Positions 53,876-64,000 of a DNA stretch of 64,000 nt are shown here, piece by piece. The translations under genes and the position numbers were made by a program. Origin of the DNA: Granulicella sp. GTDB taxonomy: Bacteria; Acidobacteriota; Terriglobia; Terriglobales; Acidobacteriaceae. Under the pieces are notes generated by a model that worked only from the letters and a program-made list of their open reading frames with translations, was not told the origin of the DNA and did no database searches. Within the stretch, counting starts at the first letter, position 1; the number at the start of each line of letters is the position of its first letter. The stretch is taken from contig DAHWNL010000070.1 of NCBI GenBank assembly GCA_027339965.1, forward strand, positions 27,565 through 91,564, written 5' to 3'.

Positions 53876-54401
53876 TTGGAATATCCTTTGGAAAGAGAAT
53901 TTCCCTCTGTAGGAGGATGTCCCGCGTGTAGTTGAAAGTGGCGGGCGGCGGATAGGTTGATGTTACTACCCCGCTTTTTGGCTGGCGGTCGCAGACGGGT
54001 CGAGGACCGTTTCCAGGGCCCAGAGATCGCGATAGCCCATGATCTTGTTGAAATGCTTCTCGGTTCGGAGAAACGCCGAGGCCATCCAGCGCAGAACTAG
54101 CTTGCCGTTCTGCCTGTGGTAACGCGGCGGGTCTGGATGCGCACGCCAGCGTGCGGGCTCTGGATGATGTTGGTCGTCGCCAGGCAACGATGCAGAGAAG
54201 GCGGCAAAACCAGCCGGTTGATGGTAAAGCATTCCTGCCGGCCTTCGATCAGGCTTGCCGCTGCCGAGGGATATTGTGGGTCCAGCCATGCGGCCAGCTT
54301 CTTGAGGCGCGCCAAGCCCTCTTTCGGTCCCAGCTTCCAGGCCGCGCGCAGCACGCACTTGGTCTGAGCTGCTGGTCCCTGGGCAGATAATCGAGCACAT
54401 T

Positions 54402-54438
54402 CCATCCCACGGACAAAGACCCGTCCGTGGGGACCCGG
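54402..54438. mobile_element. 37-bp hairpin insertion element, copy 1
   Basis: CCATCCCACGGACAAAGACCCGTCCGTGGGGACCCGG flanked by CATT on both sides; removing it restores HKLRNVLDYLP. Confidence 0.8.
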
Positions 54439-54617
54439 CATTGCGCAGCTTGTGGGCGCTGCACCGGCTGCTGAGCGCCGAAGACTGCGTTGATCGCTGC
54501 TTTGAGCGCGTTTGAGCCGTCGATGACGAACAACATCTTGCGCTTCGGGTCGACACCGCCCGAGACGATGTCTCTAAACCGTTCGGTGATCACCGTGTAG
54601 TTCTCCGTGGCTCCTTC

Positions 54618-54656
54618 CCACCCCGGCGACGAAGACCTGTCGCCGGGGACCCCAGT
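54618..54656. mobile_element. 39-bp hairpin insertion element, copy 2
   Basis: CCACCCCGGCGACGAAGACCTGTCGCCGGGGACCCCAGT flanked by CTTC on both sides; removing it restores KHVLGIGEGATEN. Confidence 0.8.
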
Positions 54657-55432
54657 CTTCGCCGATGCCCAGCACATGCTTGTTGCTCTCCGCATCTACG
54701 CCCACCGCGCCGATCATGGCGTAGTCGCCGAAGACGAGTCCGTCGATGTAGATCACCAGCAGCTTCAGGTCGTCGAAACGCCGCGACAGCAGCGCTTCCA
54801 CCTCCGCTTCCGAAGCTTCGGTCACCTGGCGACCGACGGCGGAACGCGAAACTCCCACCGTCTCGACCATCGCCGGAATGACTTCCTCGTAGTTGCGCGT
54901 AGAGACGCCGCGCATCAGAATCTCCAGTATCCGCGCTCCCATGGCTCCGCGGTTTTGCATGGCGGCATAAGCGGGGACTTCGACCTCCTGGCTCACGGCT
55001 CCCTTCTTGCGCGAGCGTGGCCGGGCTACTTCCAGCTTGCGATCGCTCAGAAACACCTGCCCTCGCTGACGGCCATAGAAAACTACCTCTGAGTTGCGCC
55101 GTCGCCTTGCTGCGGTGGACCTCCCGCAGCCTCAATCGCCGACACTTGCAATACGGTCTGGATGGCCGACCGACCGGTCACTTCGATCAGCTCGTCGCAG
55201 GCCAGCCGGCATTGCGCCATCATCCACCACGGGCAGAGGAGCCTGCCCGTACTTGACCAGGAAGTTGGTCAGCTCTCGTTCGATGCATTTCCCTTGCTTA
55301 CAGATGGTGCGATAAGCTCTTTTCTCGGCGGTTCTCCTTGTAAAAGGTTCGCGACCCGATTCTTTCTGAACCGGGTCGAACCGCCGCTCAACTTTCAACG
55401 AAATCGGGGACACCCTAGGAGGATCTATATCC

Positions 55433-57316
55433 ATGCTAACCAGGAGGTCGTTTCTTGGAGCGTTTCCAGCTCTTTATACCTTGACCAAGTGTGACACGAT
55501 TGGGCAACCAGCCTCTACGGGCAACCGCGCCTATCATGTCAGCAAGCAGGGGAACGATCGGAATGACGGATCACCATCTCGTCCTTTGCTCACCATCTCC
55601 GCTGCGGCTGCTCTGGCACAGCCTGGAGATGTCATCACCGTGCACGCGGGCATCTATCGCGAACGCGTCACGCCACCCCGCGGAGGAACATCCGATGCAA
55701 GGCGGATCGTGTATCAGGCTGCTCCCGGTGAACGGGTCAAGATCACCGGGGCGGAGTCGGTCAAAAACTGGACTAGGGTGAATCAGATTGTTTGGAAAAT
55801 CGTCCTGCCGAACAGTTTCTTCGGTCACTTTAATCCTTACAGCGACGTCATCCATGGAGACTGGTTCGACCCCAAAGGACGAAAGCATCACAGCGGGGCC
55901 GTTTATCTCAACGGTGACTGGTTCGTCGAAGCGGCAACTCTCGACGATATTTTTAAGACAGTCGGAGAAACGCCACTCTGGTTCGGACAAGTCGATGATA
56001 ACTTCACCACTATTTGGTCCCAGTTCAAGGGTAGCGATCCGAACAGTGAGGACGTAGAGATCAATACAAGACAGACAGTATTTTATCCTGACAAAACCGG
56101 CATCAACTATCTCACGGTCCGCGGCTTCATCCTCAGTCAGGCCGCCACTCCATGGGCGCCTCCCACAGCCGAGCAGATCGGTATCATCGGAACCCACTGG
56201 AGCAAAGGTTGGATCATCGAAAACAACGTTGTCAGCTACTCCACCTGCTCCGGTATAGCTCTTGGAAAATATGGCGATCGCTGGGATAATACCTCAGGAA
56301 ATTCAGCCAAAGGCTACGTCAGGACTATCGAGCGTGCAACGCAGGCTGGTTGGTCCAAAGAAAACGTTGGCCATCATCTGGTCCAGAACAATACCGTCTC
56401 GCATTGCGAGCAGGCAGGCATCGTAGGCAGCCTTGGGGCCGTATTCTGCGTAGTCACTCGCAATACCATTCACGACATTCACGTCCGGCGTCTCTTCTCA
56501 GGCTCTGAAATGGCAGGCATCAAATTTCACGCTGCTATCGACACGGAGATTAGCCGTAACCACATTCATCGAACCTGCCTCGGCCTTTGGCTTGACTGGA
56601 TGGCGCAGGGTACCCACGTCTACGGGAATTTGTTTCACGACAATCTGAAAGAGGACCTGATGGTCGAGGTCGACCACGGTCCCTTCGTCGTCGACAACAA
56701 CATCTTCCTTTCCGGCACTTCGCAGCGCATCCTCTCGCAAGGCGGAGCCTACCTGCACAATCTTTTTTGTGGCGGTATCAATCTCACTCAGTTTGACGGC
56801 AGGATGACTCCTTACATGAAGCCTCACTCCACCCAGGTGGCCGGATACCACAATAATCCCAGTGGCGACATGCGTTTCTACAACAACATCTTCGCGCAGA
56901 ACGGTGACCTCACGCCGTACAACGAAGCGTACCTGCCCATGTATTGTGACGGCAACGTCTTTTTGAAGGGAACGCAGCCATGCTCCAAGGAAGCATCACC
57001 GCTCCTGCAACCTGAATTCAATCCATCCATCCAACTAGTCGAATCCGCCAACAGTCTTGATCTCGAAATCAATCTCGACAGCGCGTGGCTCACCGCGAAA
57101 CATCGCCGCCTGGTTACGACTGCCCTGCTGGGCAAAGCCATTATCCCTGACCTTCCCTTTGAACGCGCCGACGGAGCATCTCTCAGCATCGACGCCGACT
57201 ACACAGGCCGCCGACGCAACCCGTTGAACCCATTCCCCGGTCCCTTCGAATCTCCCGGTGGAGGCCGGCAAACAATCAAAGTCTGGCCCGCAATACGAAA
57301 TCCGAAATCCGAGTAA
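55433..57316 (+). CDS. Tat-exported beta-helix glycoside hydrolase, GH120 beta-xylosidase-like
   Basis: TRRSFL; TISAAAALAQPGDVITVHAGIYRE; WAPPTAEQIG; HWSKGWIIENN; GIKFHAAID; WLDWMAQG. Confidence 0.8.
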   Translation: MLTRRSFLGAFPALYTLTKCDTIGQPASTGNRAYHVSKQGNDRNDGSPSRPLLTISAAAALAQPGDVITVHAGIYRERVTPPRGGTSDARRIVYQAAPGERVKITGAESVKNWTRVNQIVWKIVLPNSFFGHFNPYSDVIHGDWFDPKGRKHHSGAVYLNGDWFVEAATLDDIFKTVGETPLWFGQVDDNFTTIWSQFKGSDPNSEDVEINTRQTVFYPDKTGINYLTVRGFILSQAATPWAPPTAEQIGIIGTHWSKGWIIENNVVSYSTCSGIALGKYGDRWDNTSGNSAKGYVRTIERATQAGWSKENVGHHLVQNNTVSHCEQAGIVGSLGAVFCVVTRNTIHDIHVRRLFSGSEMAGIKFHAAIDTEISRNHIHRTCLGLWLDWMAQGTHVYGNLFHDNLKEDLMVEVDHGPFVVDNNIFLSGTSQRILSQGGAYLHNLFCGGINLTQFDGRMTPYMKPHSTQVAGYHNNPSGDMRFYNNIFAQNGDLTPYNEAYLPMYCDGNVFLKGTQPCSKEASPLLQPEFNPSIQLVESANSLDLEINLDSAWLTAKHRRLVTTALLGKAIIPDLPFERADGASLSIDADYTGRRRNPLNPFPGPFESPGGGRQTIKVWPAIRNPKSE

Positions 57317-57836: not shown

Positions 57837-59133
57837 GAGCTCGTTGAAAATCGGCGGATCGCGGCGGATTTTCTGGTGATTTTGTTGTTTGCCGGGTCGG
57901 AATCTGTTTGAACCGCTGTTTTGGGCGGTATTTATCGGGTGTTTTGGGCTTCGGGAATCATCCCCGAGGCCCAAAGCCGAAGTTCAGGCACACTGCCGCC
58001 TGAGTCTTGCTTGAGCTTGGGCGATCAGCTTTGGCAAACGAAGCAGGTTGTGCGCGGCGCAACTGAAGACAAACAGCCAGTCCACCTTCTCGATCCCTCG
58101 CAGTTTGACCTGGCGCAGCGGGCCGGTTTCCTTCAGCCATCCAAAGCCCTTCTCCACCAGCCATCGCCGGCTCAGGCTGACGGCATAGCCGGGCTGGCGA
58201 GTCGTTCGGCGATCCAGATTACTCTTGCGTCCTTTATCGTTCCTAGTCACGTGCGGCGTCACGTTCAACTCCCGCGCCGTGCGCACAAAATCCTTGGTGT
58301 CGTAGGCCTTGTCGGCGCCCACGGTAATGCGGCGCGAGCGGTTCTGCTGCTTCTGTTGAAGCATCAACAACGCGGCATCGCGCTCGGCGTATCCATCCGC
58401 GCGCGTTACCATCGCCGCGGCGATCAACCCGTTCCGGTTCTCCACCAGCGCATGACCCAGATAGCTCAACCGAGACTCCTTGCCGTAGCTCTTCTTATAT
58501 AACCGCGCATCCGTTTCGGTGGTGGACTCATGCGTCTTGTTACTCCGCTTCTGGCCATGGAAATTCGTGCCGTCGCCATCGTCGGATCCGTCCTTCGAAC
58601 GGAAGCTCTTCTGCGAGGCCCACGCCTGAATCAGCGTCCCGTCCACCGTGAAATGCTCATCCGACATGAACCGCCTGGCCTGCCGGTTCACTTCGGCAAA
58701 GAACTGCTGCGCCACATCGGAAGTCAGCAGACGGTCGCGGTTCTTCGAGGACACCGCATGGTTCCACATCGCATCGTCCATGCCCAGGCCGACAAACCAG
58801 CGAAACAAAAGGTTGTAGTCGATCTGCTCCACCAGCAACCGCTCCGAGCGAACCGAGTAAAACACCTGCAACAACAGCGCCCGCAGAATGTACTCCGGCG
58901 CAATCGAAGGCCGACCCGAATCCGCATACAGCACATCGAACTCCGGGCTTAAAGTCCGCAACACCGCGTCCGTCAGCTTGCGAACCGCGCGCAGCGGATG
59001 ATCCTGTGGCACCCGCTGCTCCAATGAAACATAGCTGAACATCCCGTCCTGATCCCGCTCGTCTCCACGCATGCCTGTTAGACGATCTAACCCCCTCCCC
59101 GCGACCACGCAAGGTGCCTATTTCAACAAGTTC
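57837..59133 (-). mobile_element. IS5-family insertion sequence, apparently intact
   Basis: Terminal IRs GAGCTCGTTGAAA / TTTCAACAAGTTC (11 of 13 match); CTAG target duplication at 57833-57836 and 59134-59137. Confidence 0.9.
57984..59072 (-). CDS. IS5-family DDE transposase
   Basis: MFSYVSLEQRVPQDHPLR, GRPSIAPE, FTVDGTLI, GADKAYD, RWLVEKGFGWLK. Confidence 0.92.
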   Translation of the reverse strand: MRGDERDQDGMFSYVSLEQRVPQDHPLRAVRKLTDAVLRTLSPEFDVLYADSGRPSIAPEYILRALLLQVFYSVRSERLLVEQIDYNLLFRWFVGLGMDDAMWNHAVSSKNRDRLLTSDVAQQFFAEVNRQARRFMSDEHFTVDGTLIQAWASQKSFRSKDGSDDGDGTNFHGQKRSNKTHESTTETDARLYKKSYGKESRLSYLGHALVENRNGLIAAAMVTRADGYAERDAALLMLQQKQQNRSRRITVGADKAYDTKDFVRTARELNVTPHVTRNDKGRKSNLDRRTTRQPGYAVSLSRRWLVEKGFGWLKETGPLRQVKLRGIEKVDWLFVFSCAAHNLLRLPKLIAQAQARLRRQCA

Positions 59134-61531: not shown

Positions 61532-61858
61532 ATGACGAAGATGGGGAAGATAGCGCGGAGGGCCTACACGCTTGAGTTCAAGCAGGAGGAGGTGCGTCTG
61601 GTGGAGTCGAGCCAGCGCGTTTCAGAGGCTGCGCGCTCGTTGGGCGTAGTCGAGCAGACATTGGCAAACTGGATGAAGGCCCATCGTGCCGGCAAGCTGC
61701 GCGGCTCCGGGCGGAACGGCGAGTTGAGCGCGGAGCAGATGGAGATCCGGCGCTTGCGCGCGGAGTTGGCGCGGGTGACGATGGAGCGCGACATCCTGGG
61801 AAAAGCCACGGCGTTCTTTGCAAAGGGTCAGAAGTGGGGTTCGCCTTTCCTTTATTGA
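61532..61858 (+). CDS. IS3 transposase OrfA (HTH)
   Basis: RRAYTLEFKQE, AARSLGV, EIRRLRAEL...ERDILGKATAFFA. Confidence 0.85.
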   Translation: MTKMGKIARRAYTLEFKQEEVRLVESSQRVSEAARSLGVVEQTLANWMKAHRAGKLRGSGRNGELSAEQMEIRRLRAELARVTMERDILGKATAFFAKGQKWGSPFLY

Positions 61859-62732
61859 TCAGCATCGTTTTGTCTGGCCGGTCTGTGTGCAGTGCCGCGT
61901 GCTCGGCGTCAGCACCACGGGCGATCACCGACATCGATTGCGGCGGGCGCAGATTGTGCGACGGCGTCACATGACGGATGAGGCGCTGCTGGTGCACATC
62001 CGCGCGGAGCATGCCGAGACGCGCGGCGCTTATGGCTGGCCGCGCATCTGGCGCGAGCTTGGCAGCCGAGGCCTGCGCGTGGGCAAGCAACGGGTGCAGC
62101 GGCTGATGCAGGCGCATGGCATTCGTGCCCGCGGCAAGCGGCGCTTTCGCGTGGCCACCACGGACAGTCGCCACGGTCTGCCCGTGGCGCCGAACCGGCT
62201 CGATCGCAACTTCTCGCCGCCGCGCCCGAACACGGCCTGGGCCCGCGATATCACCTGCATCGCAACCGACGAAGGCTGGCTGTTTCTGGCCGTGGTCATC
62301 GATCTGTTCAGCCGTCGCGTGGTGGGCTGGAGCCTGCAGCCGCACATGGAACGCAGCCTGGTCATCGACGCACTGGAGATGGCCTGGCAGCAGCGTCGGC
62401 CTAAGCGTGGCGAGCTGCTGTTTCATAGCGACCGTGGCAGTCTGTATGCCAGTCAGGACTTCGCGCAGCTGCTCTACCAGCCCGGGATCACGCCGTCGAT
62501 GAGTCGCAAGGGCAACTGCTGGGATAACGCCTGCTCGGAGACATTGTTCGGTTCCCTGAAGGTGGAGTGGCTCGACGGGCAGCGCTTCGCCACCATCCGC
62601 GAAGCGAAAGATGCGGTGCTTGCCTGGCTGCGCTGGTACGACCGCCGCCGTACGCACTCCACGCTTGATTACCCCAGCCCAGCCGACTATGAACGGAACT
62701 GGATCCAACAAAAACAGCAGGCCGCCGCATGA
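61818..62732 (+). CDS. IS3 transposase OrfB (DDE)
   Basis: YGWPRI, WARDIT, DLFSRRVVGW, FHSDRGS, GNCWDNACSE. Junction with orfA looks altered. Confidence 0.85.
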   Translation: MQRVRSGVRLSFIDQHRFVWPVCVQCRVLGVSTTGDHRHRLRRAQIVRRRHMTDEALLVHIRAEHAETRGAYGWPRIWRELGSRGLRVGKQRVQRLMQAHGIRARGKRRFRVATTDSRHGLPVAPNRLDRNFSPPRPNTAWARDITCIATDEGWLFLAVVIDLFSRRVVGWSLQPHMERSLVIDALEMAWQQRRPKRGELLFHSDRGSLYASQDFAQLLYQPGITPSMSRKGNCWDNACSETLFGSLKVEWLDGQRFATIREAKDAVLAWLRWYDRRRTHSTLDYPSPADYERNWIQQKQQAAA

Positions 62733-63128: not shown

Positions 63129-63189
63129 CAGATAAATCAATAATTTACTTCGGTTTTCCCCGCCTGTCCTCAGGCCGCATTTTGACGCG

Positions 63190-63228
63190 GTGATACTAAA
63201 AGTGATACTTTGGCCTCGCAGTGGTACT
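63190..63228. promoter_or_regulatory. Putative integrase arm-type binding repeats (att region)
   Basis: GTGATACT-AAAA-GTGATACT...GTGGTACT between the tRNA 3' end and the integrase start. Confidence 0.5.
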
Positions 63229-63239
63229 GGGAGGGCAAT

Positions 63240-64000
63240 TTGGCGCGCAAGGAAGAGGTGAAGGTCCGGGGCGTTTGGGAACGTGAACCTGGTTCGGGCG
63301 TTTGGTGGATTCGCTATCGTGACACCGATGGGAAGTTGCACCGCGAGAAAGTGGGACGAAAGAGTGATGCAGAAGCCCTTCTCAACAAAAGGCGGAACGA
63401 GCGTCGTGTTGGCAAGAAGATGCCGGAGAATATTCGTACTTCCCCTATCAAATTCGCCGAACTTGCCGACTACATTACGGATGATTATTCGAAGACACAT
63501 CATTCAGACTCGCGCAACGTCACGCAGCGCCTTGGAAGGCTGAAGGAGTACTTCGGCGATTTCCCAGCTGAGACTATCAAGCCCGCAGAGATTGACAACT
63601 GGCTTTCGAAGAACACGAAAACAGGTAGCACCGCGAACCGTTATCGGGCGGCGATGAGTCTCGCGTACCGTGAAGGTATTCGTAACGGCAAATTGACGAA
63701 CAATCCTGTTCGGCTGGTCAAACAGCGGAAAGAGGGTGGCAATGTCATTCGCTTTTTGCGCGAACACGAGGAGGTTGCGCTTCGTGCAGTCATCGCAGAG
63801 AAGTATTCAGACAAGATGTGTGAGTTGGACATTTCTCTTGGAACAGGAATGCGGCTTTCCGAGCAATATGGAAGCCGGTTACGCTGGCAAAATGTTGACT
63901 TTCAACGTCGAGAGGTGGACCTCTCGAAGACTAAGAATTACACGGCTAGGATTATCCCCATGAACGCCTCGGTATTTGCAGCCTTCGAAGCGCGCAAAGC
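63240..64000 (+). CDS. Tyrosine recombinase/integrase (partial, runs off the window)
   Basis: Not in the ORF track because it has no stop in the window. Manual translation: MARKEEVKVRGVWEREPGSGVWWIRYRD (arm-binding domain)...TANRYRAAMS...NNPV...LGTGMRLSE (catalytic Arg)...KTKN. Confidence 0.9.
   Translation, partial: MARKEEVKVRGVWEREPGSGVWWIRYRDTDGKLHREKVGRKSDAEALLNKRRNERRVGKKMPENIRTSPIKFAELADYITDDYSKTHHSDSRNVTQRLGRLKEYFGDFPAETIKPAEIDNWLSKNTKTGSTANRYRAAMSLAYREGIRNGKLTNNPVRLVKQRKEGGNVIRFLREHEEVALRAVIAEKYSDKMCELDISLGTGMRLSEQYGSRLRWQNVDFQRREVDLSKTKNYTARIIPMNASVFAAFEARK

Follow-up and report, generated by a model that had tools for sequence, protein, structure and literature searches.

Can a hairpin of fewer than 40 nucleotides behave as a transposon? 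The question is raised by two short inserts in a broken transposase gene of Granulicella sp., which lie in the window analyzed here, that is, the whole stretch of 64,000 nucleotides from contig DAHWNL010000070.1 (assembly GCA_027339965.1, positions 27,565 to 91,564). An earlier note on this DNA had read them as members of a non-autonomous mobile family selected for its structure, a view which is supported by the empty sites, the dispersed copies, the duplication signal in the 42-bp register and the covariation described below. We suggest that the two inserts are likely fossil copies of a very small non-autonomous transposable element that depends on an inferred trans-acting enzyme. Sequence comparison shows that each copy entered a transposase gene of the IS256 family at a T-rich 4-mer and duplicated that 4-mer, and that the family as a whole inserts precisely, with a target duplication of 3 to 6 bp (mostly 4 bp). 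The family enters genes as well as hairpin loops of other repeats, and at times repeated landing next to an existing copy yields tandem arrays. Its copy numbers are patchy and sometimes explosive, and it is carried by insertion sequences and by virus-labelled DNA.

The blocks formed by the two copies and their direct repeats (Table 1) are separated by about 175 nt. The positions, hairpins, 4-bp direct repeats and shared orientation that had been noted for them were borne out by the sequence and by folding as single-stranded DNA (ssDNA). Both copies fold with a stem of 9 to 10 bp and a loop of 8 nt, at −10.6 kcal/mol (z = −2.66) for copy 1 and −14.3 kcal/mol (z = −5.20) for copy 2, and their stems differ at three pairs, every one of which is compensated, as had been claimed. 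Copy 1 corresponds to a 38-nt unit minus one base of the 3′ tail (CGG, not CCGG). A degenerate motif with up to 3 mismatches found just these 2 sites in 64 kb and 0 in 100 shuffles, which agrees with the earlier statement that no other copy is present in the window. The covariance models of Rfam gave 0 matches in positions 53900-55450 at E values up to 1.

Table 1. Hairpin copies, their target repeats and the host insertion sequence (positions of the window)
Feature	Position	Strand	Basis
Hairpin element copy 1	54402..54438	+	37 nt; sequence, motif match, fold, absent in insert-free homologues
Left target-duplication copy CATT, element copy 1	54398..54401	+	sequence; empty-site alignment
Right target-duplication copy CATT, element copy 1	54439..54442	+	sequence; empty-site alignment
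Hairpin element copy 2	54618..54656	+	39 nt; sequence, motif match, fold, 43-column gap in insert-free homologues
Left target-duplication copy CTTC, element copy 2	54614..54617	+	sequence; empty-site alignment
Right target-duplication copy CTTC, element copy 2	54657..54660	+	sequence; empty-site alignment
Decayed IS256-family (Mutator-type) insertion sequence bearing both hairpins	53950..55400	-	PF00872, broken frames, full-length DNA homologues, intact paralogue

The host insertion sequence (IS) was searched against 41 related genomes and the best matches were aligned; four unpublished genomes are included in this tally and in the count of Y1_Tnp genes among 121 genomes given below. The comparison with uninterrupted IS256 homologues, which the earlier note had proposed as a check, yielded three that lack both inserts (G000:C29, G009:C65 and G005:C25). 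Opposite the inserts they have alignment gaps, 43 columns wide at site 2 and 42 wide at site 1 (where the window has 41 nt), and each 4-mer is single at the empty sites, the one at site 1 reading AATG or AACG on the coding strand. The homologue G000:C29 is a paralogue in the window's own genome, 73% identical, with an intact frame of 452 aa that contains KHVLGIREGATEN and HKLRNVLDYLP. Removal of each insert with one repeat from the window copy recovers KHVLGIxEGATEN and HKLRNVLDYLP, matching this intact frame as the note had predicted. Copy 2 together with one repeat adds 43 nt and shifts the frame, as in the copies of genome G007. The note's attribution of the frame changes to the inserts needs one correction: the frames of the window gene are also fragmented by additional frameshifts up- and downstream, so the inserts account for only some of the changes. 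The Mutator-type domain PF00872 is matched at 54577-55131 of the window (E = 1.6e-6) and in the G007 homologue (E = 1.2e-8).

Two copies of the IS in G007 (C113 and C114) carry inserts at the identical two sites, and a partial copy (C106) carries one at the position of site 1; the stems of the G007 inserts are somewhat unlike those in the window. At site 2 both genomes gain 43 nt, and thus a frameshift; at site 1 the gain is 42 nt for G007 and 41 nt for the window copy. Since the same two sites are occupied in G007, both insertions predate the split of the IS lineage. The two inserts are separate events, in agreement with the independent insertion first proposed, and yet old ones, inherited or spread with the IS since. 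Judged from these alignments, they are best described as passengers of the IS lineage rather than recent hits on a dead gene, and this description is more apt than either of the earlier suggestions, that IS DNA is targeted or that a dead gene simply tolerates the inserts. The two inserts also date the decay of one IS256 lineage.

The shared sites bring up another explanation, namely that the hairpins are functional in the IS256 lineage and that the 43-nt insert is a putative programmed frameshift or ribosome-bypass site which throttles the transposase. The frameshifting insert is common to copies that are just 83-84% identical, and the sole defect of G007:C113 (L145:1350-3115) is the +1 shift at this insert, which leaves two long overlapping frames of 352 and 252 aa with the second hairpin in frame as GVPSDRSSLLGW. 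In addition, a stable hairpin lies between identical 4-mers that are conceivable take-off and landing codons. However, further stops and frameshifts are present in G007:C114 and in the window copy, as dead copies would have, and the window copy is therefore a dead IS. Intact insert-free paralogues could also move defective copies in trans, and in 33 non-transposase genes the element is read in frame, with nothing there that calls for recoding. We consider a recoding function very improbable.

The earlier note had named the absence of further copies with 4-bp duplications as a result that would speak against its reading; many such copies were found. The genome of the window (3.8 Mb in 88 contigs) contains a third copy of the same subtype at C60:2292-2329 and a fourth copy, of a 34-nt subtype, at C38:11703-11736; three of the four copies lie inside insertion sequences. 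The third copy lies upstream of an IS110-type transposase gene, at a distance of about 280 bp, an arrangement also seen in G007:C85. The IS110-family pair G000:C60:900-2420 and G000:C10:2735-4316 is 83.5% identical, with the third hairpin in the 5′ non-coding region of the former and unrelated sequence at that place in the latter. A strict motif was found in 8 of the 41 relatives (one of them the unpublished genome G036) and its reversed-pattern control in 0, and a scan of one genome per species gave at least 122 stretches with the motif. Among 80 loci with titles, 79 were labelled Acidobacteriaceae, Terracidiphilus, Silvibacterium or Acidobacteriota metagenome-assembled genomes (MAGs), and 1 was a gammaproteobacterial MAG. 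Virus-labelled contigs of IMG/VR contributed 83 stretches, several of them on one 134-kb contig. The copy-rich contigs are IMGVR_UViG_3300047160_036057 (L330, L345) and IMGVR_UViG_3300035696_000011 (L336-L408), with at least 6 matches on a 29-kb contig and at least 11 on the 134-kb one, and several of these copies recur in a repeated composite context with a spacing of about 1.1 kb. The hairpins are thus able to hitch-hike between genomes inside insertion sequences and virus-labelled DNA.

The fixed parts of the family are its ends only, CCACCCC at the 5′ side and GGGGACCCCGG at the 3′ side, which are asymmetric. Between these cores lie 31-41 nt that form hairpins of many sequences, and whole units measure 34-43 nt. 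The loop RAAGACCY, which the earlier note had taken as shared, is conserved in the window subtype, and other subtypes have other loops and other lengths within that range. A pattern of the ends only matched one or more times in 55 of the 121 genomes taken from the same taxonomic family, at roughly one per genus and with a completeness of at least 90%. Counts ranged from 0 to 292, the highest being 292 (G069), 52 and 41, and the controls gave 1 at the most. Across the phylum, a pattern with fuller ends was positive in 18 of 201 genomes, and a second family of the phylum contains 37 and 23 copies of a 35-nt subtype. We found no description of the family in print, although such an absence is no proof. 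The main text of the RepRanger paper (PMC12306157) gives just a repeat count for one Granulicella genome.

The structure of the element was examined in an alignment of 96 distinct 38-nt units, one row of which comes from G036. Both CCACCCC and GGGGACCCCGG are present in all 96 units, and a GTAG or CGTC tag in none. Standard pairing occupies 93.2% of the cells of the ten stem pairs, compared with 81.0% after shuffling, and double-sided changes were counted in 109 cells against 40.9, values not attained in any of 500 shuffles. When the partner is shifted by 1-3 columns, the pairing falls to 37-46%. In the two central pairs GC, CG, AU and UA are freely interchanged, and at one stem pair 46 of the 96 units have A.C, which the opposite strand reads as G.T. 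Overall, A.C mismatches outnumber G.T mismatches by 81 to 42, and the reverse strand is the more stable one in 90 of 115 distinct sequences. Since related sequences do not count as independent cases, we take these numbers as strong support for pairing and weak support for a given strand. The pattern indicates an inner stem constrained only to pair, between conserved ends. The earlier statement that the element has no terminal inverted repeats needs to be modified accordingly, since the stem arms act as short ones; it was right in that the truly conserved parts are the asymmetric ends.

The commonest unit consists of 38 bp plus a 4-bp duplication, which makes 42 bp. In this register, the 4 nt on the two sides of the unit agree fully in 28 of 155 copies and at three of four positions in another 40, compared with 0 and 6 at a control offset. 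In the 18 perfect cases outside tandem arrays, the duplicated 4-mer is T-rich (CTTC in 5, then CATT, CCTT, ATTT, TTGA and others) and bordered by G or C. The T-rich strand is nearly always the forward strand of the element, and the orientation is therefore tied to the target. Other subtypes have repeats of 3-6 nt. Tandem arrays contain 2-6 units with periods of 39, 42, 45 or 49 bp, in which the duplicated bases are common to adjoining units. In two arrays (L025 and L094) neighbouring units have different stems, which suggests repeated landing at a regenerated target rather than slippage alone. The idea that all units are multiples of three was rejected, because the periods of 39, 42 and 45 bp fit it and the period of 49 bp contradicts it; an in-frame length is the outcome of selection in genes and not a rule. 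One array in a gene comprises six tandem 42-bp units near the C-terminal part of a CoaE-type open reading frame (ORF; L098:1001-1240), to which it adds 84 residues, (GVPGDRSSSLGWxA)x6.

Copies inside protein-coding genes were identified by submitting 126 stop-free frames that span a copy to Pfam, with a cut-off of E up to 1e-5. Frames shorter than 150 aa, with fewer than 40 aa on either side of the copy or containing N were dropped. The GC content of third codon positions alone could not separate mirror frames, and Pfam was used for this reason. A match was obtained for 39 of the 126 ORFs, and 33 of these 39 are non-transposase genes, whose Pfam domains flank or surround the unit. The hosts include leucyl-tRNA synthetase (LeuRS), UvrA (three loci), UvrC, RNase R, QueC, GcvP, RibD (two), CoaE, NadA, a GlmU-like enzyme, dihydropteroate synthase, Lhr helicase and ABC transporters. 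None of the six frames of the unit is closed by a stop. It reads GVPxDxSSSxGW in 18 ORFs, GSPxTGLxxWGG in 7 and GPxxQVFVxGV in 4, all with the host gene on the strand reverse to the element, and on the forward strand HPxDEDLSxGTP in 9 ORFs and a further sequence in 1. The sense strand of the host gene is thus the opposite strand of the element in 29 of 39 cases. For 7 of 20 compared genes (LeuRS, the GlmU-like enzyme, PNP, Lhr, an NtrC-like regulator, an AMP-binding enzyme and an ABC transporter), the orthologue in the window's genome lacks exactly the unit or two units; in the remainder the site is too variable or the match does not span it. The occurrence of several frames on both strands, together with exact empty orthologues, therefore points to insertion at the DNA level that was filtered by selection afterwards. 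By its reading, the 42-bp unit supplies 14 extra residues, which genes tolerate.

These data also bear on the proposal that the repeat is not mobile DNA at all and instead a recurrent peptide-coding motif or a tandem repeat generated by slippage. The unit is 14 codons long, arrays of 2-6 units occur in ORFs, as in the CoaE-type gene, and one reading, GVPxDxSSSxGW, is dominant. [quoted passage not shown] The nucleotide-level conservation, the compensatory stem changes and the precise empty sites already contradict this proposal, to which we attach practically no credence.

Many copies are nested in other repeats. We found them in the loop of a CCCAGGTCCC...GGGACCTGGG hairpin, in a CCCACCCT...AGGGTGGGG hairpin, in a GGCACGAC...GTCGTGCC hairpin whose entire 5-nt loop is duplicated, and at the apex of a MITE of about 170 bp. 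The main site of this kind, in G018 and G020, is the loop of a GTCATCC...GGATCTGC hairpin, the empty form of which reveals the insertion point and the 4-nt duplication. A perfect flanking stem of at least 6 bp surrounds 27 of 231 junctions compared with 13 of 461 control positions. Some composites have been amplified themselves, as seen from identical copies in G069, so that fewer independent insertions took place than the copies suggest. The MITE-like element has terminal inverted repeats of the TAGAGCGGTTCTCCAATT type and a central GTGGCTTTT...AAAAGCCAC hairpin with the 38-nt element at its apex (L024, L031, L034, L039, L057, L058, L068, L130, L135 and L138), and one contig carries two inverted copies of it at a distance of 2.6 kb (L057/L058). 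A second hairpin repeat, CCCAGGTCCC-loop-GGGACCTGGGGCACCC, occurs inside genes such as UvrA, UvrC and GcvP (L030, L044, L054, L055, L117, L124 and L142); the 38-nt element also lands in it, which gives some genes nested double insertions.

The GTCATCC...GGATCTGC hairpin, at whose apex other nested hairpins are often found, seems to resemble the SRM repeats of Ssn nucleases. Inverted copies of it bracket GIY-YIG genes of 81-154 aa (L306-L324 in G057, G069, G043, G093 and G139; for example, L313:1300-1900). One alternative is that small GIY-YIG nucleases of the Ssn type nick hairpin loops and that the element is captured at the breaks. Ssn proteins are described by Chenal et al. (2025, PMC11893778) as cutting ssDNA adjoining their own hairpin repeats. 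Of 15 small genes in five copy-rich genomes, 4 have a flanking SRM-like hairpin with the element in its loop (all 3 in G069, which has 292 copies, and the 1 in G093), and the loop GAAG, which is CTTC on the element strand, corresponds to the commonest duplication (5 of 18 cases). However, it is the SRM-like hairpin that brackets these genes, and the element is merely nested in it as in other hairpin families; 11 of the 15 small genes have no copy nearby; and many insertions are in plain coding sequence, with the flanking stem at just 27 of 231 junctions as noted above. We consequently did not retain the GIY-YIG genes as genes flanked by the element. The link is probably indirect, the element's liking for that loop may suffice to explain it, and capture at nuclease breaks seems to us quite unlikely.

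A tyrosine HUH transposase (RAYT/TIRYT) is another candidate for the mobilizer. The hairpins would then be REP-like repeats moved through an ssDNA hairpin at the replication fork, and the flanking repeats would be by-products of target choice or repair. The hairpins are of REP size and have a conserved tag at their ends, and the strand asymmetry described above (A.C 81, G.T 42; reverse strand more stable in 90 of 115) would fit such a route. So would the orientation in two complete genomes, in which dnaA was taken as the origin, its antipode as the assumed terminus, and each array was counted once. There, the forward reading goes with fork movement for 41 of 55 copies in total (G020, 21 of 27; G018, 20 of 28), most of the copies being composites. 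Y1_Tnp genes were detected in 113 of the 121 family genomes, a copy lies 60-330 bp from 3 of the 5 RAYT-like genes looked at, and REPs within genes are known (PMC3733652). However, the flanking 4-mers of our element vary from one site to another and are single in empty sites, which makes them true duplications. Single-strand insertion by HUH enzymes, as in IS200/IS605, is not known to make target duplications. Moreover, the five RAYT-like genes are bracketed by different inverted repeats of their own, in which the nearby hairpin is nested; G093, with 41 copies and 97% completeness, gave no Y1_Tnp match; 0 of 12 strong Y1_Tnp loci hold a copy; and the orientation counts are confounded by composite repeats and the assumed terminus. 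We therefore report the fork orientation as an unexplained bias and not as proof of a single-strand mechanism. A near-universal Y1_Tnp is uninformative and the genes examined have their own flanking repeats, and RAYT/TIRYT was thus rejected as the mobilizer; a single-strand HUH route as a whole we judge unlikely, if somewhat less so than capture at nuclease breaks. The RAYT/TIRYT-like Y1 genes themselves, of about 150-215 aa (L214, L216, L217, L218 and L219), have a repeat of the GAGCCCCGGAGGGGCGACAC type upstream and its complement just past the stop, and REP-like hairpins are additionally found alongside them. Acidobacterial tyrosine transposases with their own terminal repeats were already described by Di Nocera et al. 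(2013, PMC3733652).

Other sources of a transposase were considered. The genes found in the right end of the window are rich in mobile functions: a DUF772/DDE_Tnp_1 transposase at 57987-59117 (-), an integrase-core transposase of IS3 type at 61779-62729 (+) and a phage-integrase-family gene at 63186-63998 (+), with sulfatase and GH120-type genes around them. The first of these, of the IS5/IS1182 type, was dismissed as it has no matching inverted repeats. The IS1380 family has CC ends and a 4-5 bp duplication. It was rejected in turn, since only 20 of 121 genomes have it, the copy-rich G043 and G093 not among them, and its inverted repeats are unlike the ends of the element. The region between three close copies in G069:C22 contained no telling ORF.

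Several observations weigh against a small transposon with a trans-acting, duplication-making enzyme. No mobilizer was identified among the RAYT-type, IS1380, parent-IS and GIY-YIG tests. In the search for a parent IS with the ends of the element in G018 and G020, the two complete genomes, all 21 orphan left ends turned out to be degenerate copies, another hairpin family or chance matches in genes. About 56% of copies in the 42-bp register (87 of 155) show no clear duplication; these copies may be old, or may have been amplified within larger composite repeats. The variable length of the duplication and of the array period is looser than is seen with most DDE transposases. Finally, the A.C pair (46 of 96) and the fork bias (41 of 55) fit a single-strand mechanism better than double-strand cut-and-paste.

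We nevertheless favor such a transposon, in which an enzyme encoded elsewhere would recognize the conserved ends CCACCCC and GGGGACCCCGG and would join the element to target cuts staggered by about 4 bp, much as DDE-type transposases or similar strand-transfer enzymes do. The free compensatory variation of the inner stem suggests that some step depends on a folded single strand or on symmetric binding to the two arms. We also put forward, as a tentative extension that we hold to be possible rather than probable, that these are the smallest transposable elements known with a target duplication (34-43 bp), that a host or phage enzyme of a kind new to transposition moves them, with a preference for T-rich 4-mers in hairpin loops or at the fork, and that the dominant 42-bp subfamily is tuned to enter essential genes as a harmless 14-residue loop. 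If so, the Acidobacteriota would be a tractable system for finding the long-sought mobilizer of "orphan" palindromic repeats.

Small palindromic repeats fill many bacterial genomes, and their mode of spreading is mostly not known. The present family offers unusually clean evidence of movement, comprising empty sites, duplications, insertions in essential genes and nesting, and it does so in a dominant and little-studied soil phylum with cultured members. It shows that an element of less than 40 bp can behave as a transposon and that genes tolerate it as a 14-residue loop. For annotation, the family accounts for puzzling insertions that keep the frame, for short peptides repeated in tandem and for frameshifts, both in genes and in insertion sequences of acidobacteria.

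We compared the family with known systems of small repeats. The Rickettsia palindromic elements (RPEs), which Ogata and colleagues are said to have described in 2000, are reportedly palindromic selfish DNA that lies in frame in functional genes and forms subfamilies with no transposase of its own. RPEs are about 100-150 bp long and are not known outside Rickettsia. Our element resembles them in standing in frame in the 33 non-transposase ORFs, including housekeeping genes, to which it adds a short peptide. It differs in its length of 34-43 bp, its asymmetric conserved ends and its target duplication of 3-6 bp, and also in its tandem arrays, its nesting in repeats and its host phylum, Acidobacteriota. 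Membership of the RPEs is unlikely, given the differences in phylum and length. RPEs are also mentioned by Di Nocera et al. (2013, PMC3733652), where REPs and REPINs are presented as stem-loops of 20-40 nt with a conserved end tag, GTAG or CGTC, some of which lie in genes, notably repair genes. The element is REP-like in being a short imperfect palindrome with an end tag, a variable stem and a copy number of 0-292 across relatives, and its host group is also rich in Y1 transposase genes. However, its tag is neither GTAG nor CGTC, its copies are usually single and not inverted pairs, it makes target duplications, and the RAYT-like genes are bracketed by other repeats.

With MITEs the element shares its non-autonomy, inverted-repeat arms of 10 bp, a target duplication of roughly fixed length and presumably movement in trans. 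In contrast, at 34-43 bp it is far under the usual 50-500 bp, no parent IS was found in the two genomes searched, and its arms vary freely while keeping their pairing, terminal repeats of a kind that a sequence-specific transposase would not tolerate. The repeats SDR1-8 of Nostoc, reportedly treated by Elhai and colleagues in 2008, are said to be mobile palindromes of tens of bp that nest in repeats and genes and cause no target duplication; we know of no enzyme for them. Our element is also a very small palindrome that nests in repeats and genes, but it duplicates its target and lives in Acidobacteriota rather than in cyanobacteria. As regards the SRM/NTS system, Chenal et al. (2025, PMC11893778) deal with abundant hairpin repeats tied to a small ssDNA nuclease, and candidate acidobacterial homologues of SRM repeats and Ssn GIY-YIG nucleases lie beside many copies of the element. 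However, the element is not the bracketing repeat and is nested in the loop of that repeat (4 of 15 genes). Thus, inside genes the family behaves as the RPEs do, and in form it resembles a REP or a minimal MITE, but it lacks defining features of each.

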